DNA of 64,000 nucleotides from Candidatus Multivorans sp. GTDB lineage: Bacteria > Acidobacteriota > Thermoanaerobaculia > Multivoradales > Multivoraceae. Positions 19,620 through 38,476 of the stretch are shown in pieces. A program made the position numbers and the translations under genes. Where the stretch lies: positions 2,240,001-2,304,000 of the forward strand of contig OZ245033.1 in NCBI GenBank assembly GCA_965224025.1, written 5' to 3'. Under the pieces are notes generated by a model. The model did no database searches, was not told the origin of the DNA, and saw only the letters and a program-made list of their open reading frames with translations. Within the stretch, counting starts at the first letter, position 1; every line of letters starts with the position of its first letter.

Positions 19620-21064
19620 GGAATCGCCTCCGGGCTGCACTCGAAACCGATCGTGAGCTCGACGGCCCTTGCCGCCCGCAGAGCCATGGCGTCGGCGAGG
19701 GGCGGGGCGAGGATCTGAAGACCCAGGGGAAGGCCTCGCCTGTCCAGACCGCACGGTACCGAGACTCCGGGAATCCCGACCAGGCTGGGCGGCGTGGTGA
19801 AGACGTCGGACAGGTACATGGCCAGCGGATCGTCGACCCGCTCGCCGCGGGCGAAGGCGCCCGAGGGACAGGTTGGAGTCACCAGCAGGTCGACGGCTTC
19901 GAAGGCCTCCGCGAACTGCTGCCGCATCGCCCCGGCGATGCGCGCGGCGCGGCCGTAGTAGGCGTCGTAGTAGCCGGAGGAGAGCGCGAACGTACCCAGG
20001 ATGATGCGGCGCTTGACCTCGCTGCCGAAGCCCTCGCTCCGGCTGTCGGTGTACATCCTCTGGAGGGAACGGGCGCTGGCGGCCCGGTGTCCATAGCGGC
20101 TGCCGTCGAAGCGGGCCAGGTTCGCGCTGGCCTCGCTGTTGGCGAGTACGTAGTAGGTCGCCACCGCCGCGTCGATCAAGGGAATGCTCACCTCGGCCAG
20201 CCGGGCGCCGGCTGTCTCGAGTGCGTCGAGCGCCTGCTGATAGCCCTCCGCCGCGTCCTCGTCCAGTGCCGAGGTCCGGACTTCGCGGATCGTGCCGACC
20301 GTCAGGCCTTCGACGCCGTCTTCGATCGATTCGAGATAGTCCTCGACCGGCAGTTCGCTGCATGTGGAATCGCGGGGATCGCGGCCGGCAATGGCACCGA
20401 GAGCCAGCGCGGCGTCCCGCACGTTTCGGGTGAGCGGTCCGATCTGGTCGAGAGACGAGGCGAAGGCCACGAGGCCGTAGCGGGAAACGCGGCCGTAGGT
20501 TGGCTTGACGCCCACGACGCCGCAAAAGGCTGCCGGTTGCCGGATCGAACCCCCGGTATCGGAGCCCAGGGCGAGCGGCACTTCGGTCGCCGCGACCGCG
20601 GCTGCCGAACCGCCGCTCGAACCGCCGGGCGCCATGGCCAGGTTCCAGGGATTGCAGGTGACGGCCAGCCCCGAGTTCTCGCACGAAGAACCCATCGCGA
20701 ACTCGTCCATGTTCACCCGGCCGACCGGCACGGCGTCGGCCGCCAGCAGGCGCTCGACGGCTCCCGCCGTGTAGGGCGCGCGGTAGCTGGACAGAATCCG
20801 GGAGCCGCAGTTCAACTCGTGTCCGGCCAGCGACAGGTTGTCCTTGAGCGCCGTGGGCACGCCGGCCAGCGGGCCGAGGTTCTCGCCGGCGTCCCGGCGC
20901 CGGTCGATGGCGGCTGCCCGTTCGTCCGCCCCCTCCCGCCAGAGTTCGAGGAAGGCGCCCACCGACGCGTCGACCTCCTCGATGCGGGCGAACGCCTGCT
21001 CGACCGTCTCGGCGGCGGTGCGCTCGCCCGACCGGACGGCGGCTGCCAGCGCTTCGGCGGTCAT
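19616..21064 (-). CDS. gatA: Asp/Glu-tRNA amidotransferase subunit A
   Basis: KDN, NMDEFAMGSS, PGGSSGGS, GSDTGGSIRQPA, EVKRRIILGT. Confidence 0.97.
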   Translation of the reverse strand: MTAEALAAAVRSGERTAAETVEQAFARIEEVDASVGAFLELWREGADERAAAIDRRRDAGENLGPLAGVPTALKDNLSLAGHELNCGSRILSSYRAPYTAGAVERLLAADAVPVGRVNMDEFAMGSSCENSGLAVTCNPWNLAMAPGGSSGGSAAAVAATEVPLALGSDTGGSIRQPAAFCGVVGVKPTYGRVSRYGLVAFASSLDQIGPLTRNVRDAALALGAIAGRDPRDSTCSELPVEDYLESIEDGVEGLTVGTIREVRTSALDEDAAEGYQQALDALETAGARLAEVSIPLIDAAVATYYVLANSEASANLARFDGSRYGHRAASARSLQRMYTDSRSEGFGSEVKRRIILGTFALSSGYYDAYYGRAARIAGAMRQQFAEAFEAVDLLVTPTCPSGAFARGERVDDPLAMYLSDVFTTPPSLVGIPGVSVPCGLDRRGLPLGLQILAPPLADAMALRAARAVELTIGFECSPEAIP

Positions 21065-21072
21065 GGCCGGCC

Positions 21073-21381
21073 TCACTCGGCACCGCCGGGCGTCGCCTTG
21101 ACCTGTGGCACGAGCAGGAAGCGGTCGAGGGATGCCGGTGCGTTGTCCAGGAAATCGTCGAGGAGCGGACGGCTTGCCGCCGGCACGTCGTTGGCGGCGA
21201 CTTTGTCCCGTTCCGGCTCCGTGTCGCCGGGCCGCGGGGCGCCCGCGCCGAACGCGCGAAGCTGGTCGATGAAGCCTATGATCTCCGAGAGTTGGGACGC
21301 GAACGTCTCTTCTTCACCGGCCGAGAGCCGCAGCCTCGCCAGTTCGGCTATCCGCCGAACCTCCTCCACATCCAGAGACAC
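21073..21381 (-). CDS. gatC: Asp/Glu-tRNA amidotransferase subunit C
   Basis: EVRRIAELARL..QLSEII..NAP..FLLVPQV; upstream of gatA. Confidence 0.93.
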   Translation of the reverse strand: MSLDVEEVRRIAELARLRLSAGEEETFASQLSEIIGFIDQLRAFGAGAPRPGDTEPERDKVAANDVPAASRPLLDDFLDNAPASLDRFLLVPQVKATPGGAE

Positions 21382-21477
21382 TTCGCCATAAGTCTAGCAT
21401 TCCTCGCGTTTACGTGGCCGCCACAGCCTTGTGCCCAGGTGCTGTGCGACGAGCAGTGGTCGGAGAGGGGGAGAAAT

Positions 21478-21891
21478 TCAAGGCCGACATCGGCCTGTTG
21501 CCGAGGTCGACTCGTTCCTCGTAAGAGGCGGTCTGGGGAGGATCCTGGCGACACCGGAATCGATTCGGACGACCCTCTGGAAAGACGCCGCCATCTCCAC
21601 GAAGCAGAAGCCGTTGCCGCCGCCCCTGATCGTGATGACCAGTTCTTCGTTCGGCGGGTCGTCCTCCAGGATCAGTTGCACCACTTCCCGATCTGTCGAG
21701 TCGTACAGTTCGGCCTCGACCAGGGCGGACCGCATGTGCCTCAGATGCGCCCGCAACTGGTGAGTTCCCGCCTCCAGCCCCCGAACCTGAAATCGGCCGT
21801 TCTGGTCGGTGCCGACCGTCCTCCGACTCGGGAAGACGGTCACGCTGGCCAGGGGCGCGGGCTGCCCATCAGGGCCGATCACCGACCCCTC
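21478..21891 (-). pseudogene. 3' fragment of a carboxypeptidase-regulatory-like repeat protein, split off by the 21892-28482 insertion
   Basis: GSVIGPDGQPAPLASVTV..GTDQNGRFQVRGLEAG; continues in frame from ..FRYDGISVE at 28484. Confidence 0.75.
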
Positions 21892-21925
21892 CAACGAGAG
21901 TAGAGAAATTGGAGAAACCCGCAGA

Positions 21926-21950
21926 GATCTCGTGCGAGAAACGCTGCGCA
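21926..21950 (+). repeat. Left subterminal inverted repeat GATCTCGTGCGAGAAACGCTGCGCA
   Basis: Reverse complement of 28439-28463 at 23/25; further GAGAAA motifs at 21903 and 21912. Confidence 0.85.
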
Positions 21951-22028
21951 AATCGGCGACCGAAGGGACGGCGTCAACAGGGTGTTGGCGGTAGCAACGG
22001 GAATTTCGCGGAATCTGGCGGGACGTTT

Positions 22029-22487
22029 CTAGGCCGTGAGGTGCTGAATGATGACGTCGACGATGTCGTCCACGTAGTCGCGCCGCAGGCCGAGGAAGGG
22101 GCGAGCGGGGATCGTGGCCTCGATGCCGCGGCCGAACAGGTTGTCGTGCTCGTGGCCGAACTGATGGGTGGCGGCATAGATGAGGTTGGTGCCGGCGACG
22201 GCCGTAGTAGGGGTCGACAGCTCGGTGAGGCTGCGCAGGTAACCGTCGCGCACAAGTGCCAAGGGGGAGTAGCCCTTGCGGGCCTTACGGGCTGCCGTGG
22301 CCGGCGCGAGCGGCGCCCAAGGCGTGCCGTCGGGGGCGGCCTGGCGCTCGAAACTCTCTTCGGCGCTCTCGCGCAGCAGGGAGGCAACGACTGCCATCGC
22401 GGGCGACAAATCCGAGGCGCGCTGCTGGAGGCGAGCGAGCGCCGAGGAGACCGCGTCGTCGTCGACCGTGATGTCGATCTGGGCCAT
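22029..22487 (-). CDS. Phage virion morphogenesis protein (Mu gpG-like)
   Basis: F..Q.APDG.PWAPL, AGTNLIYAATHQFG and IPARPFLG motifs. Confidence 0.9.
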   Translation of the reverse strand: MAQIDITVDDDAVSSALARLQQRASDLSPAMAVVASLLRESAEESFERQAAPDGTPWAPLAPATAARKARKGYSPLALVRDGYLRSLTELSTPTTAVAGTNLIYAATHQFGHEHDNLFGRGIEATIPARPFLGLRRDYVDDIVDVIIQHLTA

Positions 22488-22496
22488 TTCCCGGGT

Positions 22497-22874
22497 TCAG
22501 ACAACTTCGCCGCGGGGCATCGAGATCTCGATCGGCTGAGTCGGTCGGATGCCCTGAAGAGACGGAGGAAGCGCTTCCTGGGGCGGCATCGCATCGTAGG
22601 GCCACAGCAGCCGCAGCAGGTCGGGCGCGCTGTGGCTTACGTCCGACAGGACGTACTTCCATCCGGAGTGAACCCAACTGACTTCTCCGGGCGGTTCGCT
22701 AAAGACCCGGATCGCCACCGACAGACCATCTGTGTATGCCGGCGGATTGCCTTGCTGGTACAGGTCGGCCACGGTGTCGCCGAACGGGTTGCTGAGGGTG
22801 CCGGCCACATCGTCCCAGATGACGGTATAGCTGCTGAGGAGGCGGCGCCCCTTGTAGCGGATGCGGTGCTTCAT
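22497..22874 (-). CDS. Small hypothetical protein, putative immunity protein of the MuF toxin
   Basis: 125 aa; TGATG coupling to the MuF stop; position matches MuF immunity genes (function inferred). Confidence 0.55.
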   Translation of the reverse strand: MKHRIRYKGRRLLSSYTVIWDDVAGTLSNPFGDTVADLYQQGNPPAYTDGLSVAIRVFSEPPGEVSWVHSGWKYVLSDVSHSAPDLLRLLWPYDAMPPQEALPPSLQGIRPTQPIEISMPRGEVV

Positions 22875-24457
22875 CAGGGGTAATCTACCAGCAGTCCGAC
22901 GAAGAACTCGAAGAAGTCGTAGTCCAGCTCGATCATTAGGTCGAGATAGTCCGTGACGTGCCAGAAACCGCCGCCGACGTCTATCCAGATGCGATCCGGG
23001 TCCGCGAGCGTTTCCAGTGCGGTGGTTGCCACCTCCAGCGGCCTCGAGCGGGCACGGGGATCGATCTGGCCGATCACGGCACCAAAGCGCGATGGGTCCA
23101 CGGGCGATGTGGACCCATCGTACGGCCTGTTGGCGTAGTCGTTGTAGCGCAGATCTCGTCCGCGGCGACGATAGAAGGCGTAGAACAGCCCGTCGAGGTC
23201 CGGGTGCATCTCCTGGATGTGGTGCACGAGTTCATGGAGCAGAGTCCTGTCGGTGGCGCCGCCGACCAACTCGATCGTTTTCGTGGCGCCATTGTAGGAG
23301 CCGAGGGCTTCGCGGTCTGCAGGCATAGCCCTTAGCCGCACGCCCGGCCCTAGATTGGCGCGGCGGATCCAGTTGGCCGGCAGGAGCCGCGAGAGCGCGC
23401 GAATTCGGTCAGCGTGCTCTGATTGGCCTAGCCCCGATTGGAGCGTCCGGATCTCAACGCCGGCCCCCTGCTCCTCGATCAACCGCCGCAGAGCCTGTCT
23501 CCGTGCAGTGCCGCGCTCCAGGAGGAGGTCGCGCTCGAGGGCGTTCCGGCGCCTGTTCTGTTCTCGCGGGTCCGGATGCGCAATCTCGCTGCGGCGGTGC
23601 TGGATCTCGGCGTCGCTCGGGCCGACGGCTCTAATGGTGGCGGCCGGTCTCCGCCCGGCAGCGATCGTTTCGTCGATCGGCAAATCAAATGCTCGCAGCA
23701 TCGAATGGACCGTTTTCTCGCTGGCGGCAATGGTTGGCCTCGGCCGGCGGCCGAATCCGGGGTCGGGAATAAGGGTCTCGCCGTTCGGGGCCTGGTAGCC
23801 CCTCGTCCATGTCTGGCGCGCGCCGAAGTCCTGGTCGACGCGGACGAGGCGGCCCTCGCTGCTCTGCACCTGGAGGCCGCGCCGCCGCACCTGGCGTTCC
23901 GTCAGGGCGCGGACCTTGCACCTGCAGTTGAAGCCGTTGGGCGGGTAATGCGTTTGCCAGATCGGGTCGTCGTGCCGGAAGACGAGGCCATCGAGGGCAG
24001 CGTGAGACGGCCGCGTCCGCGAGTCGTCGATCGCGTCGTACTGCCAGTACGGCAGGGACTCGGCGGACCGTTTCTGCTGCTGGTGCCGGGCCGCGGCGTG
24101 GGCGGTCCGCAGGTTCGTGGCGTAGATCGTCCGCAGTCGGCGTGGACTGCCGAGCTCGATCGTCTTTCCGTCCTTCGTGACACGGCCCCACCAACCCTTC
24201 CTGCGCAGCACGGGTTCGAGGCCCCGACTGAATTGACGGAGGGTCTGCCCCTCGGCAAGCGCCCGGTCGACCGCGCCGCGGATGTCTCCGAGGACGTCGA
24301 ACCCGGCCGATTTCGCCACCGTGAAGGCGAGCGCGTGCGCCTCCTCCCACATGTCGCGCCACGACCAGGTGAGCGCGTACCCCTTGTCGCGGAAATAGGC
24401 GATCGCCGCCTCCGGTGCGAGCCCGACGGCGTGGCCGAGGTTGACCTCCTCGGGCAC
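22874..24457 (-). CDS. MuF (Mu gp30-like) minor head protein with C-terminal HExxH metallopeptidase-like extension
   Basis: AFTVAK, RLRTIY.TN, PYWQY..D.RTRPSH..LDG..D.PIW..YPPNGFNCRC; then LLHELVHHIQE and a downstream PLE. Confidence 0.88.
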   Translation of the reverse strand: MPEEVNLGHAVGLAPEAAIAYFRDKGYALTWSWRDMWEEAHALAFTVAKSAGFDVLGDIRGAVDRALAEGQTLRQFSRGLEPVLRRKGWWGRVTKDGKTIELGSPRRLRTIYATNLRTAHAAARHQQQKRSAESLPYWQYDAIDDSRTRPSHAALDGLVFRHDDPIWQTHYPPNGFNCRCKVRALTERQVRRRGLQVQSSEGRLVRVDQDFGARQTWTRGYQAPNGETLIPDPGFGRRPRPTIAASEKTVHSMLRAFDLPIDETIAAGRRPAATIRAVGPSDAEIQHRRSEIAHPDPREQNRRRNALERDLLLERGTARRQALRRLIEEQGAGVEIRTLQSGLGQSEHADRIRALSRLLPANWIRRANLGPGVRLRAMPADREALGSYNGATKTIELVGGATDRTLLHELVHHIQEMHPDLDGLFYAFYRRRGRDLRYNDYANRPYDGSTSPVDPSRFGAVIGQIDPRARSRPLEVATTALETLADPDRIWIDVGGGFWHVTDYLDLMIELDYDFFEFFVGLLVDYP

Positions 24458-24458
24458 G

Positions 24459-25478
24459 TCAGGCGGCGATCGGCAGCCCGCGGTCCAGGGCCGCCCGGAC
24501 CGCCCGGCCGCCGGGGCCGGCACGGTACACGGCGGACAAGTCCAGCAGATCGACAGCGGACTGGTGGATCGCCTCGCCGAGCACGGCCTCGTCGCCCGGC
24601 GTGCGCTGGTGGCGGCCGAGCAGGCGGTACGGTGCCGACATTGAGTCGCCGGCCCGGCAGTCCCAGACAGGCCGGAGAGGGCGGGTGAGCGCGGCCAAAT
24701 CGAGCCCGGCCGCTCGAGCGCGGCGCCACATCCAGGTCAGCGCCCGATCGGAGAGTCCCGTGTCGGCGCGGCCGCCACCGACGTCGCCGTGCACGCCCGG
24801 GAACCAGACCTGCTCCACGACCTGGTCGGCCTGCTCGCCAGCCCACAGACTGGGGGCGAACGGCCGGCGCTGCTCGTCAATCGCGACCGCGTGACAGGCG
24901 TGACGGATGTGGGCGCCGAGGCCGACGTCATGCCAGCGCCAACGCCGGGCGCCGACCCACCGCAGGCCGTCAATCGGCACGCCCAGGGAGCCCACCGTGT
25001 CCCAGACGCCCAGGAAGCGCACGCGGGCCCGCACGGGGCTCACCCTGGCCTCCCACTCTGCGACCTCCTCCGCGCGGCGCCGGCGATAGACGCCCATTGC
25101 TGCCCGGGCAAGCGCGTAGGCCGAGTCCCGCTGCGGCGGAATGCCCAGAAGACCGACCATGCCGGCGAGGCTGCGAGCAGTGTAGGCTCCGCGGCTGTAG
25201 CCGAACAGATAGAGATCGAGTCCAGCGCAGTAGTGCTTGATCAGCCAGTGGTACGCCTCCTCGACGTTGCGGGCCAGCCCGAGGCCGACGACGCCGCCGC
25301 GGAGACGATCGAACCGGCCGGTGCCCACGCCCTCGTCGTAGTAGACGTGCGCCGGCACGAACCGCTCGGCCGCGGCCGCAGCCGAACGGGTCATGGCCAC
25401 GTTGGTGGGGTGTGGCGCGTCGGCCCTGTTCCAGGTGCCGTCGAAGCACATCACGAGATTCACCGACGGGACGCTCAT
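24459..25478 (-). CDS. DUF2235 / Tle1-like alpha/beta-hydrolase (phospholipase)
   Basis: CFDGTWN, TNV, YYDEGVGT, FGYSRGAYTAR (GxSxG), GVWDTVGS, AIDEQR, WFPGVHGDVGGG. Confidence 0.9.
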   Translation of the reverse strand: MSVPSVNLVMCFDGTWNRADAPHPTNVAMTRSAAAAAERFVPAHVYYDEGVGTGRFDRLRGGVVGLGLARNVEEAYHWLIKHYCAGLDLYLFGYSRGAYTARSLAGMVGLLGIPPQRDSAYALARAAMGVYRRRRAEEVAEWEARVSPVRARVRFLGVWDTVGSLGVPIDGLRWVGARRWRWHDVGLGAHIRHACHAVAIDEQRRPFAPSLWAGEQADQVVEQVWFPGVHGDVGGGRADTGLSDRALTWMWRRARAAGLDLAALTRPLRPVWDCRAGDSMSAPYRLLGRHQRTPGDEAVLGEAIHQSAVDLLDLSAVYRAGPGGRAVRAALDRGLPIAA

Positions 25479-26575
25479 GGTCGGCTCGCTTGGTGGTGGA
25501 CGCCGCCAGCGTCGATCCGCAAGTCGGCGGTCGTTTCATCGAGCCACGGGATCCAAGATCTGCGGCCGCTGTCTCCGTCTACGGCCTCGCACCCGCGGGC
25601 GTCCCACTGGATCCGCGGCGCCCTCGACACTGACCGAAGAGGCGACACGGCCTGGATTGAGATTCCCCGCGAATCGAGCCGTGCCGCGGTCACCGCGCCC
25701 TTCTGCCAGCTCGTGGCCCTGTCGAGCGCCGCGAGGACGAGCCTTCCGCGCCGCTGGATGCGGACTCGCAGGTCGCCCCAGGTGCAGATATGCGACGACA
25801 CGAGCCGCGTCGCGCACCGGCGGACGGCATGCGCCTCGCCGCGGACGACTCGACACAGCCTCTCCTGGACCGGCGAGCTCAAGGGCTGTCCGCTCAGCGC
25901 CAGGACCGTCGCCAGTTGCCGGCCGGAGATCGGCCGATCGTGGGCGGCGGGATCCGTCGGCATCGGGTGCCGGCGCTCCTGCCGCCGGGCCTTGGCGGCC
26001 GCGTGGCGGCGGGCGCCCGGCCATCCGATCAGCAGGCCGAGGAGATCGGTCGCGCCGCTGCTGAGAGCGACCCACCGACTGGCCCTCATCCCAACCGGAC
26101 AGAGGTGCAGGTTGCGGACGCGGGCACGGACCGGCTCGCCGCCGTACTCTCCCGTCCGGACGCCCGGTCTGGACGGCACCGCCAGCATCGCCAGCAAGTC
26201 GCACCAATCGCGGACGGCACGGGACAGAGCCACCCGATCGGCGCCCCGCTCGGCGAGCGCCGCGCCGACAACCAGCGCCGCCAGCACCCGGGCGGTGTAG
26301 GTGGGGCTGTTCCACTCACGGAGCTGCCAGCCCTCGCGCTCGTAGCGGCGGACCCACTCCACCAAGGCCTCCCAGTCACCGAGGCCGGCCAGCAGCACAG
26401 GGCGGAAGTTCATGCTGGTGTCGCGGTCCGTCGTCCGGAGGAGCAGGCCGTCGCGCCGGCGCTGGCCGCGGCGGCGGTCCGAGGCGAACGCCTCGGCCAG
26501 GTCTGGGCGGCCGTTCGCGCGCCAGTAGAGCGCGATATCGCCCAGGTCACGAGGGCCGACCTTAGTCGCCGGCAT
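25475..26575 (-). CDS. Hypothetical protein (366 aa)
   Basis: Co-oriented and ATGA-coupled to the DUF2235 gene; contains EWNSPTY. Confidence 0.6.
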   Translation of the reverse strand: MPATKVGPRDLGDIALYWRANGRPDLAEAFASDRRRGQRRRDGLLLRTTDRDTSMNFRPVLLAGLGDWEALVEWVRRYEREGWQLREWNSPTYTARVLAALVVGAALAERGADRVALSRAVRDWCDLLAMLAVPSRPGVRTGEYGGEPVRARVRNLHLCPVGMRASRWVALSSGATDLLGLLIGWPGARRHAAAKARRQERRHPMPTDPAAHDRPISGRQLATVLALSGQPLSSPVQERLCRVVRGEAHAVRRCATRLVSSHICTWGDLRVRIQRRGRLVLAALDRATSWQKGAVTAARLDSRGISIQAVSPLRSVSRAPRIQWDARGCEAVDGDSGRRSWIPWLDETTADLRIDAGGVHHQASRP

Positions 26576-26638
26576 CGGAATCCTCCGGCAGGCCGTGGAT
26601 CGCCACGGCCGCGTTCGCCATCATCTGCGCCTGTTGCA

Positions 26639-28189
26639 TCAGCGTGATGCCTCCTCGGCCTCCAGCCGGCCCCACACCTGGGCCACGAACAGCACTCGCG
26701 CCAGGCGCTCGGCCAGCTCGCCGACGTCCATCTCCGGCCACACCGAGGCGAGGTCCGAGAGCAGCGCCTCGGGGTCCTCCTGCGCCCGGCGCAGGACAGG
26801 CTCGATCATCGGGGCCGCCATCTCGTCCCAGGCGTCGGCGTCGATCGCCGCCATCACCTGCTCGATCCGGTCGAGCTGCCGCTCCGCCAGGTCCACTTGC
26901 GTGATGTGGCGCGACGGCCGTTGTCGCGCGCTGCCGCGCCGCGACGCAAAGGGACGGTCGGCCCACGCCATCTCGGCGTCGGCGGCGCCGGCCCCGGGAG
27001 ACGTCGGCGGCGCCGGCCGCTCCTCGCCGAGCTCCACGCCGTACGTCTCCTCGACGTAGGCGTCCGACAGGCGCCGCCCGCTGATATCGACGATCAGCTT
27101 GTCCCTTTCCGCCTGCACGAGGAGGTCCGGGTCCTCCTCCTGCACGCGGCGCAGGATCGGCACGGCCGCCCCGGGCCAGTTCCAGTCGACGATCCACCGC
27201 GCGACCTGACTCCGGAACGAGTCGTGGATCAGCCAGGCGTCCGCGGACACGATCTCCTGGCGGACGTCCATGTGGATCTCCGCTTGGGAGCGCGACGAAC
27301 CGTCCTCGGACGTCATTGTCTCCGAGAGCACCACCTGGGTGATCGCGTCGTTCATCCTGCCGTAGAAGGACTCGTAGTCCATCGTGCCGCCGGAGCGCTC
27401 CAGGAGCTCGATCGTCGTCGAGTCCGGGACCACGACGCCGGAGTCCGTGTGCAGCGCCTTCACGGCCTCGAGCAGCTTCGCCTTGTCCGCTTCGCTCGCG
27501 GTGGGCAGGTACCTTCCGACGCCCGTTGGCTGGCCAAACTTCTCCAGCGCCACCAGCCAGAACTCGGTCTGGTGGCGCTTGAACCAGACCGGCCAGTACA
27601 GCGCGTGCCCGAGGCCGCGGCCGTACGGCTCGTCCACGTGATCCGCGCCCGTTGATGTGGTCCAGAACTTCCGGTCCGGCAGGGGCTTGCCCGCGGCGTC
27701 CTTCACCGTGCGCAGCAGCAGCCGCCACCGCGTCGCTCGGCCGCCGTCCTCGGCGCGCCAGGCGAAGCGCCGCCGGTCGCGGGGGAGGATCGCTTCCGGC
27801 ACGACGTGACGGCCGTCGCGCATCCACATGACTTCCGCGACGCCCCATCCATAGAGGGTGGCGTACAGCATCTGGTCCGTGATTGCGTCCCACGGCGACC
27901 CCCCGAGGACCTCCTCGAGCTGCTCGGCCGCCATCTTGTCCCGGCGCGTCTTGCCGCCCGGCAGCACTTGCGTCTCGCGGGCGACCAGCGCCGCACGGCG
28001 CTGCTGGTGCGTCGACCAGACCTTGTCGTCGCGGAGCAGATCCTCGTACAAAATATGGTCCGACCGGCCGCGCTCCCGGAGCACACGGTCCTGCGGCGCC
28101 AGCCACCACAGACCGTCCACCCAGCCGCGGGTGATGTCGCGGCCGCTGGTGACGCGGGCGATCTCGCCCTGGGGCGCCCTGGCCACCAT
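26639..28189 (-). CDS. Mu gp29-like portal protein (DUF935)
   Basis: LYEDLLRDDKV, YGWGVAEVMW, PYGRGLG..LYWPVWFK..W...EKFGQP, SRSQAEIHMDVR, ELAERLAR.LF.A...G C-terminus. Confidence 0.9.
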   Translation of the reverse strand: MVARAPQGEIARVTSGRDITRGWVDGLWWLAPQDRVLRERGRSDHILYEDLLRDDKVWSTHQQRRAALVARETQVLPGGKTRRDKMAAEQLEEVLGGSPWDAITDQMLYATLYGWGVAEVMWMRDGRHVVPEAILPRDRRRFAWRAEDGGRATRWRLLLRTVKDAAGKPLPDRKFWTTSTGADHVDEPYGRGLGHALYWPVWFKRHQTEFWLVALEKFGQPTGVGRYLPTASEADKAKLLEAVKALHTDSGVVVPDSTTIELLERSGGTMDYESFYGRMNDAITQVVLSETMTSEDGSSRSQAEIHMDVRQEIVSADAWLIHDSFRSQVARWIVDWNWPGAAVPILRRVQEEDPDLLVQAERDKLIVDISGRRLSDAYVEETYGVELGEERPAPPTSPGAGAADAEMAWADRPFASRRGSARQRPSRHITQVDLAERQLDRIEQVMAAIDADAWDEMAAPMIEPVLRRAQEDPEALLSDLASVWPEMDVGELAERLARVLFVAQVWGRLEAEEASR

Positions 28190-28400
28190 CAGGACACCCA
28201 CCCGGCCAGGCCGTCTGCGGCGCCGCGCTGACCGCCGGTGATGAACGACCGGCGCCAGTCCTCGCCCGTGCTGACGCGCCCGCCGGCCGAGTCGGCCGTC
28301 GGCGGCCCGACCGCCTGGTCGGCCGCCTGGCAGCCGAGCGCCAGTGCGACCGCGCTGTCCCCGTGGCGGTCCTTGCCGGCGCCGGGCAGGCGCCGACATC
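28189..28400 (-). pseudogene. C-terminal remnant of a Mu gp28-like terminase large subunit
   Basis: KDRHGDSAVALAL motif; stop overlaps portal ATG (TGATG); truncated at the element end. Confidence 0.65.
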
Positions 28401-28438
28401 TTTGCCCAACAGCAGCCCGTTGGCCGTGCCTACGCGGC

Positions 28439-28463
28439 TGCGCAGGGTTTCTCACACGAGATC
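28439..28463 (-). repeat. Right subterminal inverted repeat
   Basis: Reverse complement GATCTCGTGTGAGAAACCCTGCGCA matches 21926-21950 at 23/25. Confidence 0.85.
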
Positions 28464-28482
28464 GGAGGCCATTTCTCGCGCG

Positions 28483-30600
28483 CCTCTACAGAGATGCCGT
28501 CGTACCGGAAGTCCAGCACGGCCTCGCGGCCTTCCGGCACCGTGACGGACCGAGCATCCTGCCTCCCGCCCGAGAGTGGCGCCCAGATGACTTCCCACTC
28601 GCCGGGGAGCACCGACTTCAGGCGGTAGCGGCCCTCGCCGTCCAGTGTCGCCTTGAGTTCCAGCCTCTGCGTGGACACCAGCTCTTCGGTTCTGGCGAGC
28701 GGACCCGACCCGTACGTGATGCCTCCCTCCGGCAACTGCGTGTCCGCCGCTCGGCGCCATACCAGCAGGCCGTCTCCCGGCTGACCGCCCCTGGTCACCG
28801 ATCCCGTGACCCTTGCGGCGCTGCGGTTGCAGGTGACGACCTCGTCGCCCGCGGCATCCTCTTCGACCTCTTCGCGCACCGGGTCGCCGCCCTCGTACAC
28901 CAGGACGCCGAACGGTTCCTCCGGTACGGCGGTGAAGGAGGCTTTTCCTTCCACCAGGTTCGCTGTGAACCGGTCCTGCGGCGGACCCGTTCTTCCTGAA
29001 TCGAGCACGACCGTCCCTTCGTCGATGTGCGAACGGACCGTAACGCGGCGGCCGCGCGAGAGTTCGACCACGCCGACATCGATTCCCTGGATCGTTGGCG
29101 CCTCCACCTCCAGCTTCCGGGGAGCGAACCCGTCGGCCTGTACCCTGAGCGTCGGCCTTCCCAGCTCAAGGCCGAAGATCTCGAAGTAGCCTTCGGCGTT
29201 CGTTTTAACCGTGGCGACATGGCCCACCACCGACGCCAACAGCGGCCCGAACTCCGAGGGTCGCGTGTAGGAGACGGAGGCTCGCGCCACGGGGCGTAGT
29301 CGTCCTCGTCGAGCACATACTCCCAGACCCATGGGGAGGGCGGCGCCGAGACGACGCCGAGGTTGCGCACCTCTCCCGCCGCGCCTTGTACGTGAAGACG
29401 CAGGAACCCCGTGTTCCCTGCCGTCAACTCCAGGTCGTACGCCCCCGCGGGCAGGTCGAGGGAGAACGCTCCGTCGGCCTCGATGCCAGCGTGCATGCCA
29501 CTCCCATTCGTCTGACTCATTGCATTCACTCGTCCACCCGCCGCGGGAGTGAGGCCGTCCGCCGCGACGAACACACCCTCCACGGAGAAGGCCGGTTCCA
29601 GTTCGACAACCTGTGGTTCCTCGGCGGTCGGTCCGGCCCGCCTGGGCAACTCGAGCTGCATGCGGAGGTAGCCCGTGGCCGAGACGACGATGCCGCGGCC
29701 GAAACCAAGCGACAACCGAATCAGTCCATCTTCGTTGACCTCGGTCCAGCGACCGCCCGCATCCCGAATCCTGGCGCTGGGGATGGCGGCACCGTCCCTC
29801 GAATCGACCACTCGGACCCAGGCGACCTCGGGAGCACGCAAGACGACGGCGCCCGGATCCACGGACCCTTCGAGATCGAGGGTCCGCGAGTAGACCAGGT
29901 CCCCTGCTTCCTCGGTCTGCAGCGAGGCAGGGCCAGCGAAGAAACCACGGATCTCGAAGCGACCATCCGGACCCGTTCGGCCGCGGTGCCGCTGCATCAG
30001 GCCGAAGCCGCTCGGGATGAAGGAGAGGCCTCTGAGCCGTACTCCTCCAACCGGTGCTCCCGCCTCGTCCACGGCCTGGCCGCTCACCGCGAGGCCAGGA
30101 CCGAGTTCGATCGTCGTCGGAGCTTCCCTGAGCCTCGGGAAAGGCGCCGCGGACCGGGAGTCGTGCGAGACGATCACCGCCGAAGGCTCCGTGGTCGGCA
30201 GAGTGAGTGCCACGATGCCCTCGTCGTCCGAAACCTCGAAGCCGAGCAGCTCCGTCGGATACGGGTGTCTCGGCCTGAACAGATTGAAGCGAGAGCCGCC
30301 CAGAGGCGCGCCGTCCGCGGTCACCGCGAACCGGAAGTCGGTCGCCGGCAGCATTGCCAGTTCCACCGAAGCCTGATCGGGGGCGGCGTTCTGCCACGCC
30401 GATGCATGGTCGCCGGCCTGAGCTTGCAGCCGCCAGTCGTCGTCGTGGCGAGGAAGGGACAGAACGGGGGATTCCGTCGTCGTCGTCGTCGGCAGGAGGC
30501 GGCGGGCAACCTCTCGCCACATCTCGGCCGGCGCGGCGGTCACCTGGAACTGACGAGGGGCCTCGTCGGATGAGGCGGACCGCGAGGGTTCGAAGATCCG
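28483..30600 (-). pseudogene. 5' part of an interrupted carboxypeptidase-regulatory-like repeat protein (also frameshifted near 29291)
   Basis: Repeated G..VD..G.PV, T..DG.F beta-sandwich motifs over ORFs 28795-30678 and 28430-30520; frame switch at G4 29291-29294; 5' limit approximate. Confidence 0.7.
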
Positions 30601-30820
30601 GCTCGTTCTTCGCCTATCTGCCACGAGTAGATCCCGTTGCCGCCTACTCCGAGCAGCAAAGCGCCGTCCTCCCGCCATCGCACGTCGCTGGCGGCGGCGA
30701 CCTCCTCCGGAAGATCGAAGGTCGCCAGCAGCTCAAGACTCGGACCATCGGCTTCGGCGGCAAGCACGACGGAGCCTGCCGCCGCCAGAGCGACGACGAC
30801 TAGACTCGACGGCTGCAGAC
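30540..30820 (-). pseudogene. Truncated N-terminal fragment of a secreted protein
   Basis: Signal-like LVVVALAAAGSVVLAA then ATFDLP..DVRW..G; no clear start; abruptly joins the neighbouring pseudogene. Confidence 0.4.
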
Positions 30821-36952: not shown

Positions 36953-38476
36953 TTGGCGGCGCTTGTTTCGTCCATCTGGTTCCAGGTCGGTCTGGCTGCC
37001 CTTGGCGGCGTCTGGTGGGCGTTCTGTTTCGACGAGCGCCCCGGGTTCCTGATTCCTCTGGCGGCCGCCGCGCCGCTGTGTCTGATTGCCGGGGCGCCGC
37101 TCGGGCCCTGGCGCAGGTTGTGGCTCGGCTGGCTTCACGGCGCCGTGGCGTGGCTGATCGCGGTGCCGTGGCTATCGACGATGCTGACCGTCTATGGGGG
37201 CTTGCCCGCCGTAGGGTCGGCTTGCCTCTTGGCCGTGCTTGCTCTCTACCTTGGCGCCTACCATGGCCTGTTCTGCTGGCTGGCCGGGGCGGCGCTGGCG
37301 CGTCGCGACGCTCTCTCGCTGCTTGTGGCGCCGGCGATCTGGGTCAGCCTGGAACTGGTGCGGGGCGCCGGTCCTTCGGGATTCCCGTGGAACCTGCTCG
37401 CGTACGCGTGGGTCGATGTTCCGGGCGCTCTCGACGCGACCCGCTGGATCGGCAGCCTTGGCCTCTCAGGTGTCGTCGTGGTCTCCGGCCTGGGAGTGTT
37501 GAGGCTTGCGGACCGCGGGACCCGCCGTCAGGCGATGACGGTTGTGGCCGGTGTTGCAGTGCTTCTGACGGTCGCGCGCTGGACGAATCTCGACCGGACG
37601 GCGCCGGCCGGACCGGTGCTTGATGTTCGCGTGGTGCAGCCGAACATCGGCATGATGACGGACGATCAGCTTCTTGGCGGTCTGGACTATTCGTCGATTC
37701 ACGCCAACTACCGTCGGCTCTTCGAACTGAGCCACGAGGCCTGCGCGCCAGGTGCGCTCGTCGTCTGGCCCGAGAGTGCCGTCTGGCCGTACGAACTGGA
37801 ACGCGACGCCGGACTCGCCCGCGACGTCGAAGCCCTGGTCGGTCGCGGCTGCTCGCTGCTGTTCAACAGCGCTCGCCGCTTCAACGCAGGCGAGGAGGTG
37901 GGGGCGTTCAACTCGGCCTACCTTGTGACGCCCGGTGACGCCGGGGCCGACCGCCAGACCTACGACAAGATGCACCTGGTTCCGTTCGGCGAGTACGTAC
38001 CCTTCGCGGGCTACTTGCCCGGTGTGCGCCAGTTGGCGCGGAACACGGGGAGCTTCTCGACCGGGGACGAGGTGAAACTGCTCGACATCGGAGGCGCTCG
38101 TCTGGGAATCTCGATCTGCTTCGAGATCGTCTTTCCGAGGCAGGTTGCAGCCCGTGTCCGGCGCGGGGCCTCCGTGCTCGTCACCATGGCGAACGATTCC
38201 TGGTACGGCGCCACCTGGGCGCCTCATCAACACCTGCGACCTTCCCGCTTCCGGGCCGCCGAGAACGGGCGGCCGGTGATCCGGGCCGCGATCACCGGCA
38301 TCTCGGCGCTGATCGATCGCCGCGGCGCAATCCTGGCGATCGCCGACATCGATCAGACGGCCGTGCTGCGAATGCCGGTTACGCCGCTCGGAGGGATGAC
38401 TCCGTTCTCCCGCGCGCCGCTGCTGGCGCCGCTGCTTTGCCTCGCACTGGCCGCTTTTGCCATACTGCGCCGATGA
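36953..38476 (+). CDS. lnt: Apolipoprotein N-acyltransferase
   Basis: GFPW, VQPNI, WPES, YDKMHLVPFGEY, ICFE, ND.WYG, RAAEN. Confidence 0.95.
   Translation: MAALVSSIWFQVGLAALGGVWWAFCFDERPGFLIPLAAAAPLCLIAGAPLGPWRRLWLGWLHGAVAWLIAVPWLSTMLTVYGGLPAVGSACLLAVLALYLGAYHGLFCWLAGAALARRDALSLLVAPAIWVSLELVRGAGPSGFPWNLLAYAWVDVPGALDATRWIGSLGLSGVVVVSGLGVLRLADRGTRRQAMTVVAGVAVLLTVARWTNLDRTAPAGPVLDVRVVQPNIGMMTDDQLLGGLDYSSIHANYRRLFELSHEACAPGALVVWPESAVWPYELERDAGLARDVEALVGRGCSLLFNSARRFNAGEEVGAFNSAYLVTPGDAGADRQTYDKMHLVPFGEYVPFAGYLPGVRQLARNTGSFSTGDEVKLLDIGGARLGISICFEIVFPRQVAARVRRGASVLVTMANDSWYGATWAPHQHLRPSRFRAAENGRPVIRAAITGISALIDRRGAILAIADIDQTAVLRMPVTPLGGMTPFSRAPLLAPLLCLALAAFAILRR

Follow-up and report, generated by a model that had tools for sequence, protein, structure and literature searches.

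Introduction

The closest described systems to the locus reported here are transposable phages of the Mu and B3 types. Target-site duplications are 5 bp in Mu and 6 bp in phages of the B3/Tn552 type, and the sections of PMC8705779 on these phages give TG-CA tips for every Mu- or B3-like phage known by that time and two divergently transcribed arms as typical of B3. A transposable phage with a 3-bp duplication is not mentioned in the literature examined (parts of PMC8705779, PMC7761591 and PMC5977238, supplements excepted). The MuF polymorphic toxins form a second point of reference. In the part of PMC5576092 that deals with them, C-terminal extensions with no known domain are found on many proteobacterial MuF proteins, metallopeptidase domains occur in 20% of recognised MuF toxins, and the toxin gene of a MuF locus is usually followed by a short open reading frame (ORF).

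The DNA analysed was a stretch of 64,000 nucleotides, called the window, from Candidatus Multivorans sp. (Acidobacteriota; assembly GCA_965224025.1, contig OZ245033.1, positions 2,240,001 to 2,304,000). Window coordinates are used throughout, and the genome of the window is referred to as G000. The subject is copy A, an insert at window 21899-28490 that carries phage head genes between inverted-repeat ends and interrupts a host gene. A sequence-only reading had described it as a transposase-less mobile element that had captured a phage head module. We conclude, with a probability of about 0.8, that copy A is the defective remnant of a transposable (Mu/B3-like) siphophage, gutted by an internal deletion after its insertion in the host gene.

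Results

Ends of the element and target-site duplication

The tips of copy A were placed by aligning copies of its ends that occur in the genome with differing flanks. The left end (130 bp) was found three times and the right end (72 bp) twice, so that a search for further copies of the ends, suggested by the sequence-only reading, was productive. Identity between the copies starts at 21899 (AGTAGAG...) and stops at 28490 (...CTCTACA), and because it is lost beyond these positions in the different flanks, they fix copy A at 6,592 bp (three genome copies aligned). The features that delimit the element are listed below; copy C is another remnant in the same genome.

21896..21898, no strand: left target-site duplication GAG, 3 bp
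21899..22028, plus strand: left end, tip AGTAGAG, identical from 21899 in three genome copies
28378..28418, no strand: internal deletion junction, terminase remnant to inner right end, where similarity or identity to the other copies breaks
28419..28490, plus strand: right end, tip ...CGCGCCTCTACA, 72 bp at 100% identity with copy C's right end
28491..28493, no strand: right target-site duplication GAG, 3 bp

Together the ends make up an imperfect terminal inverted repeat of 52 bp (21899-21950 versus 28439-28490) in which 36/52 positions match. It contains the 25-bp inverted repeats reported earlier (21926-21950 and 28439-28463), which do agree at 23 of 25 positions. The additional GAGAAA motifs also proved real, at 21903, 21912 and 21936, with TTTCTC at 28448 and 28472. 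Other inverted pairs of at least 24 nt listed in the same scan were 70-86% complementary. The 21-nt repeat consensus, with up to 2 mismatches, occurred at two places only in the 64-kb window (0.00 expected from 100 shuffles). The boundaries proposed before (21892 and 28482) were off by 7-8 bp, and the apparent asymmetry of the repeats, 34 versus 19 bp from the tips, arose from this misplacement; once the tips are corrected, both 25-bp repeats lie 27 bp from their own tip. The tetranucleotide CCTC is present at both junctions (21888-21891 and 28483-28486), as had been noted, but the right one is inside the tip and is not a target duplication.

The left end carries three GAGAAA-type repeats and an inner CAACA...TGTTGG motif that is also seen at the ends of relatives, and it is homologous to the left ends of prophages in two other genomes, G020 and G023. 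The right end is 74-75% identical to that of the G020 prophage, and the identical 72 bp of copy C come after tail genes. Right ends terminate in CA; read from the outside in, the tips of copy A are TGTAGAG (right) and AGTAGAG (left), and both relatives have TG at both tips. Perfect 3-bp direct repeats flanked 4/4 two-ended elements of the lineage, at four different loci: GAG for copy A, CAC for copy C, CTC for G020 and TTC for G023, the last on the assumption that a left arm on contig C14 and a right arm on contig C7 belong to one prophage. The earlier opinion that these ends do not fit Mu rested on the misplaced boundaries; with the corrected tips, CA at the right tip follows the pattern of transposable phages, although the duplication is 3 bp instead of 5 bp.

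The interrupted host gene

The two parts of the host gene flank the element directly.

21478..21895, minus strand: 3' fragment of host gene, PF13620 (CarboxypepD_reg) E 8.3e-11
28494..30678, minus strand: 5' part of host gene, frameshift near 29290-29323

The gene belongs to a family of multi-repeat CarboxypepD_reg proteins of ~1,060-1,110 amino acids that is multi-copy in the genus. The site was uninterrupted in 5/5 relatives' loci examined, reading ...ATCTCGATCGAGGG... or a close variant, and the nearest orthologue (74% identity) continues across it as ...FRYDGISIEGLVLDPDGHP... The empty sites match the window flanks joined via a single CTC/GAG. The duplication and the empty sites together bear out the view of a bounded insertion with inverted-repeat ends in a host gene. 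Excision had been predicted to rejoin the reading frame; the length is right (6,595 bp removed either way), although the joint reads YDGIS-L-EGSV and not S-V-E.

The host gene is pseudogenised beyond the insertion, by a frameshift (~29290-29323) and a shortened 3' end (21478-21530). In tblastn against the orthologue in genome G019, the 3' fragment covers residues 751-878, leaving ~110 C-terminal codons of the orthologue without a counterpart, and the 5' part switches frame near 29290-29323, a region spanned without differences by a unitig (28461-29600).

Cargo genes and a complete relative

The element has ~70% G+C, similar to its surroundings, and all of its real genes are on the minus strand.

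22029..22487, minus strand: gpG-like virion morphogenesis protein, 152 amino acids (PF05069 E 6.5e-31; TIGR01635 E 4e-21)
22497..22874, minus strand: orf125, small ORF directly downstream of MuF, without family match
22874..24457, minus strand: MuF (SPP1 gp7-like) minor head protein, 527 amino acids (PF04233 E 3.3e-29)
24459..25478, minus strand: Tle1-like (DUF2235) alpha/beta-hydrolase lipase, 339 amino acids (PF09994 E 8.3e-67)
25475..26575, minus strand: orf366, very small family, without family match
26639..28189, minus strand: Mu-type portal, 516 amino acids from MVARAP (PF06074 E 9.1e-91)
28189..28377, minus strand: large terminase, last ~62 codons, aligning to the C-terminal end of copy B's terminase remnant

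Read in the direction of transcription, the order is terminase tip, Mu-type portal, orf366, Tle1-like lipase, MuF, orf125 and gpG. This agrees with the earlier description of a cargo running from the tip of a terminase to gpG, intact and tightly coupled: all six whole ORFs are intact (5.9 kb of coding sequence without a defect), and the stop codon of one gene overlaps or adjoins the start codon of the next (TGATG, ATGA) at terL/portal, orf366/Tle, Tle/MuF and MuF/orf125. No transposase, capsid or tail gene was present among the genes of copy A, likewise as described.

An apparently complete prophage of 49,865 bp from tip to tip was found in G020, which is of the same genus. Homology to copy A extends to its tips (TGTTGAG...CTCAACA) and subterminal repeats, and CTC lies on both sides. 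Reading inward, its left arm has five genes (one tail-fibre-like), gpG, MuF, a Tle1-like gene (60% identity), a 393-amino-acid gene, the portal (55-58% identity), terL and terS, and innermost come holin-like and M15 endolysin-like genes (assigned by eye, from sequence only), an ATPase, a transposase and a helix-turn-helix gene; all are transcribed toward the left tip. The transposase (533 amino acids) matched phrog_310 (E 4.6e-23) and no Pfam DDE model, with IS481 otherwise seen far below cut-off, and the adjacent ATPase matched AAA_22 (E 1.8e-13). The divergent right arm comprises a methylase and, assigned by eye, a sulfatase-like gene; next come a protease (Mu-like_Pro) and a major head protein (phrog_1005), then connectors, tail tube, tape measure and a J-like protein, up to the homologous right tip. 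In G023 the same left arm lies on one contig and the transposase and right end on another, with TTC by both tips.

Because the left arm of G020 has the same gene order as copy A and the same orientation toward a homologous left end, one deletion explains the cargo. At the junction, copy B ceases to be similar at ~28373-28393, and from 28419 on the sequence is identical to copy C. A doubly deleted prophage had been named before as the main alternative to a mobile element; the deleted prophage is essentially right, and one deletion suffices. The order gpG-MuF-lipase-portal toward the left end is native to the lineage, so copy A is not a captured head module, and the proposed capture does not survive comparison with a complete relative that has the same block natively.

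A complete phage of this lineage has two arms, both read outward from a regulatory region at the centre. On the leftward arm lie transposase A, ATPase B, lysis genes, terminase, portal, an accessory gene, lipase, MuF and gpG up to the left end, and on the rightward arm protease, capsid, connectors and a lambda-like tail up to the right end. In the sequence of events that we propose, such a phage integrated by DDE transposition into the CarboxypepD_reg-repeat gene, duplicating 3 bp (GAG), and one internal deletion then removed the DNA between a point within terL and another ~85 bp short of the right tip. With the ~50-kb relative as a guide, the deleted length would be roughly 35-43 kb (~85% of the phage genome). 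We infer that integration came first and that the deletion followed in place.

The lineage portal was found in 3/57 genomes of the family (including G000) and in 3/401 sampled genomes of the class, all of one genus. Outside the genus, portal relatives with 32-50% identity occurred in 46 genome loci and 80 viral contigs. Mapped genes on the viral contigs were co-linear (terL, portal, MuF, gpG, and tail genes where mapped). Three genome loci were not: gpG is on the opposite strand in L006 and L008, and L009 has a split layout. L009, with L052/L053, is from a metagenome-assembled genome of Pseudohongiella (G001) and holds ~19 kb with tail genes, terminase, a portal-MuF fusion and gpG in a divergent layout; gpG is ~190 bp from an end that carries TTTTCGCAT twice. 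No second end was found for L009, which was hence left outside the duplication count, and no capsid, protease or transposase gene was seen in it. The Mu gpT capsid model PF10124 had no match in 5 genomes.

Other remnants in the genome

G000 holds at least four further remnants besides copy A. Copy B (C1 2918218-~2924750) has the left end, gpG at 63% amino acid identity, a MuF of PBECR2 type, the same lipase, orf366 and portal as copy A, and ~250 amino acids of terL; it is cut inside terL by an unrelated gene for a 1,253-amino-acid repeat protein and has no right end. Copies A and B showed 0 differences in 3,893 bp (24426-28318) and 1 difference in 305 bp at the left end. Over 22203-24425, a segment with the orf125 position and the larger part of both gpG and MuF, they are strongly diverged. 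By this pattern of identity, copies A and B are mosaics.

Copy C (C1 2368580-2383336, inverted) consists of the left end, gpG (96%), a 127-amino-acid ORF and the C-terminal part of MuF, followed head-to-head by a lambda-like tail module (tail tube, tape measure, M/L/K/I-like proteins and a J-like protein) that runs to the right end. It is flanked by CAC on both sides, and its flanks adjoin in relatives at 2/7 loci checked (L164, L167). As its gene order reads, copy C is a tail arm joined to a gpG/MuF arm by an internal deletion of its own. Copies B and C together reconstruct an architecture of the G020 type and thereby support one parent layout. Beside the site of copy C lies a ~200-270-bp sequence (L005 2282-2552 = C1 2368282-2368552), a multi-copy repeat found in many genomes of the genus and often clustered at 2-6 kb spacing.

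Two more, D and E, are inverted transposase-less elements of 15.36 kb that are 99.99% identical and lie 35 kb apart across the circular junction of C1 (5045405 through the contig end to 13084, and 5010092 to 4994736). C1 is circular, since a single alignment crosses the contig end. D and E contain a lambda-like tail module and a Tle1-like paralogue, with repeats of GTGCGAGAAA at their bounds, and the 35 kb that separate the two elements are ordinary host (housekeeping) DNA. No 3-bp repeat was found at their flanks under direct, crossed or reverse-complement pairing. The pair resembles a product of replicative transposition, which is a hint of such an origin. On a separate contig, C2 (77 kb), a second fabF-like stretch was observed (37487-38001, 89% identical to the chromosomal one); C2 may come from a related organism, contamination being given as 5.66%.

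Searches for a transposase and for moved copies

The sequence-only reading regarded copy A as non-autonomous and mobilised in trans. It does have no transposase, but neither a partner nor a second copy of the deleted form was found in the genome. No homologue of the A, B, protease or capsid proteins of G020 was detected in G000 (tblastn, E 1e-6), so the autonomous partner that had been envisaged was not recovered as any matching transposase. The phrog_310 model had 20 matches in G000, apparently in multi-copy insertion sequence (IS) units. Of these, two IS families of 1.3 kb and 1.6 kb were inspected as possible partners, and neither has ends related to those of copy A. At least 8 copies of the 1.3-kb family and at least 8 full or partial copies of the 1.6-kb family are present (represented at C1 2562133-2563429 and 2750111-2751710), and most copies of each are 99-100% identical.

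Copy A keeps both sets of predicted transposase-binding repeats, so mobilisation in trans by a cognate transposase is possible in principle. On this basis the deletion could have occurred elsewhere, with the 6.6-kb form moved in later, as a natural mini-Mu, by a transposase supplied from a superinfecting phage or from a prophage since lost. Both ends are intact and retain their repeated binding motifs, the two 3-bp duplicates agree perfectly, and D/E show that a different transposase-less element with related end motifs (15.36 kb) exists in two 99.99% identical copies. Against these points, the junction of terminase tip and right end is a single copy in the genome, the exact right tip gave 0 matches in the scan of a metagenome collection, the genome has no cognate transposase, and even D/E are unproven transpositions, with no matching duplications in any pairing tried. 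We regard a mini-Mu origin as unlikely. The same metagenome scan returned 119 loci with degenerate matches to the inner site; none had a related phage protein (tblastn), 6 had a second motif nearby, and they were regarded as chance.

Support for the assembly

Exact repeats of 0.3-3.9 kb are common to copy A and two other loci, and repeated phage ends of this kind could in principle have produced a chimeric join. In two runs, probably of the source sample, one short-read unitig (21034-21927) covers the host sequence into the left end, another (28289-28448) spans the deletion junction and a third (28419-29600) runs from the right end into the host. Unitig depth for unique segments equalled that of the host flanks, and segments common to other copies were proportionally higher. 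Since these unitigs bridge both host junctions and the deletion junction at flank depth, and both flanks are one gene that is contiguous in relatives, an assembly artefact is scarcely credible. A run from a second study contained the portal-lipase block in a form resembling that of copy B. Neither empty-site nor circle joints were seen among the contig joints of three runs, in which contigs drop rare variants.

The MuF C-terminal domain, orf125, orf366 and the lipase

The C-terminal ~230 amino acids of MuF carry an HExxH motif that was invariant in 4/4 aligned sequences. The domain had no match to Pfam, PHROG, NCBIfam or PADLOC models, its two relatives besides itself in a large protein search were both MuF fusions, and the ESM Atlas returned unnamed clusters only. 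An AlphaFold model from the 4-sequence alignment had a mean predicted local distance difference test (pLDDT) score of 55.6, with residues ~260-430 alone reaching 70-88. In Foldseek, small zincin metalloproteases were the best matches (top Wss1, E 0.05), and no PDB match had E <=0.001. The invariant HExxH and the faint fold hits weakly suggest a metalloprotease.

The MuF C-terminus and the small ORF that follows it form a module that is swapped between copies. Copies A and C have HExxH variants that are 38% identical, and copy B has a PBECR2 nuclease (PF18810 E 6.9e-16). orf125 had 0 matches in Pfam, PHROGs, NCBIfam and PADLOC; its counterpart at the same position in copy C is 29% identical (the 127-amino-acid ORF). 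orf125 is a candidate partner or immunity protein of MuF. The locus fits the picture of a MuF polymorphic toxin, here a predicted toxin only.

The lipase has a GYSRG (GxSxG) motif in its translation and covers positions 2-286 of the 287 in the PF09994 profile. Counterparts that are 58-60% identical sit between portal and MuF in G020 and G023. orf366 belongs to a family of 9 sequences, with 8 homologues besides itself at 44-81% identity in a search of 5.8 billion proteins; it had no match in Pfam, PHROGs, NCBIfam or PADLOC, unnamed clusters only in the ESM Atlas, and no signal peptide visible by eye. In G020 the orf366 slot is occupied by the 393-amino-acid protein (L139 4525-5706), which has an Acb2/Tad1 hairpin (PF24729 E 5.9e-09). 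This position next to the portal may be a locus for anti-defence or accessory genes.

Whether the cargo has been kept by selection

The satellite or interference cassette put forward earlier found no supporting evidence: 0/6 cargo proteins matched PADLOC models of known defence systems at E <=0.001, and no satellite genes were present. Among the six whole ORFs there was no integrase, primase/replication or helper-interference gene (Pfam, PHROGs, PADLOC, NCBIfam). A cassette retained by selection could act as a toxin/immunity or anti-phage island, with MuF-HExxH paired with orf125 and the lipase with orf366, or as a satellite that contributes a portal and MuF toxin to a helper's particles. Six whole ORFs remain intact while the surrounding host gene is frameshifted, and a swapped MuF C-terminus followed by a small ORF is typical of polymorphic toxin loci as PMC5576092 outlines them. 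The cargo is also co-oriented with the disrupted host gene, and read-through from that gene could in principle express two pairs, MuF-HExxH/orf125 and lipase/orf366. However, youth would account for the intactness, the region of the late promoter and its activator would have been deleted according to the G020 map, neither a defence match nor an integrase, replication or helper-interference gene was found, and the same genes are ordinary parts of a complete phage. Retention by selection is accordingly judged very improbable.

The case for a young copy A lies in the 3,893 bp that are 100% identical to copy B, and the intact ORFs probably reflect youth and not selection. The 0 differences between A and B over the genes that they share give no divergence from which selection could be gauged, and the relatives of the cargo in the genus, at 55-60% amino acid identity, would be saturated for the ratio of nonsynonymous to synonymous substitution rates (dN/dS).

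Discussion

Several observations weigh against a prophage deleted in place. The data fit deletion in place and transposition of an already deleted element alike and do not separate the two. The host gene is frameshifted and shortened beside a defect-free cargo, a contrast that selection on the cargo would explain as well. In the G020 and G023 prophages, gpG is separated from the left tip by five additional genes (~7 kb); these are absent from all three genome copies (A, B and C), so the local parent phage differed from the reference. The left tip reads AG in 3/3 genome copies; the other four tips read TG. The search with the Mu transposase model PF02914 (DDE_2) was uninformative, as it had no match in the genome but its control matched no genome either. 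Finally, the two members of the transposase-less D/E pair are 99.99% identical, which means that some defective elements in this genome have been copied.

From the last point a broader proposal can be framed, in which A, C and D/E are natural mini-transposable-phage hitchhikers, copied and possibly packaged by incoming phages and kept by their toxin or lipase modules. We think this improbable. If it were true, the MuF-toxin/small-ORF and lipase modules would protect or addict the host, and a phage lineage with 3-bp duplications would have spawned its own family of parasites.

Copy A itself is a prophage fossil, and no new category is needed for it. The lineage from which it comes is distinctive in its 3-bp duplications, its very divergent transposase and a head module split over two outward arms. 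A Tle1-like lipase and an interchangeable MuF C-terminal effector are routine cargo of the phage, by the portal, and offer a possible case of proteins delivered or deployed by phage heads. The locus is also a warning for annotation: clean inverted repeats, a target duplication and an intact cargo are insufficient to name a new class of mobile element.

Comparison with known systems

Phage satellites (P4-like elements, phage-inducible chromosomal islands (PICI), capsid-forming PICI (cf-PICI) and PICI-like elements (PLE)) resemble copy A in that it is small and non-autonomous and has some virion genes. Unlike them, it has no integrase, replication or helper-sensing/interference genes, its ends are transposon ends and not att sites, and its genes are a contiguous piece of a complete phage. 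Families of miniature inverted-repeat transposable elements (MITE) or mini-Mu differ from it as well, since the deletion junction of copy A exists in one copy in the genome and no autonomous partner was found.

The lipase is like the Tle1 effectors (PF09994) of the type VI secretion system (T6SS) in its catalytic-domain match (E 8.3e-67) and GxSxG motif. It differs in context: there is no VgrG/Hcp of a T6SS, the neighbours are portal, orf366 and MuF, and the gene lies within a phage head module in three genomes of the genus. Like the MuF polymorphic toxins, to the extent that PMC5576092 describes them, and the polyvalent proteins of temperate phages, the MuF protein has an N-terminal MuF domain and a C-terminus that differs between near-identical copies, with a small ORF directly downstream in A and C and a PBECR2 domain in B. 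Unlike those toxins, the C-terminus in copy A belongs to no known toxin family, and the gene is in a dead prophage unable to make particles.

The closest fit is with Mu/B3-like defective prophages and mini-Mu. The left tip of copy A is AG and not TG as in Mu and B3. The duplication is 3 bp in 4/4 elements of the lineage, against 5 bp in Mu and 6 bp in B3/Tn552. The arms are also divided differently, the break coming after gpG, with terminase, portal, MuF and gpG on the early arm, away from protease, capsid and tail. In common with these phages, copy A has terminal inverted repeats with several predicted transposase-binding repeats and a right tip of CA, and the insertion sites of the lineage are mutually unrelated, with a short target duplication. 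The head genes are of Mu type (Portal_Mu/DUF935, MuF, gpG), and G020 has a DDE-type transposase beside an AAA+ ATPase and a two-arm layout as in B3. Unlike a complete Mu/B3 prophage, copy A and the whole of G000 are without the lineage's A and B, and because DDE transposase A and ATPase B are absent, copy A is classed as a defective derivative of such a phage.

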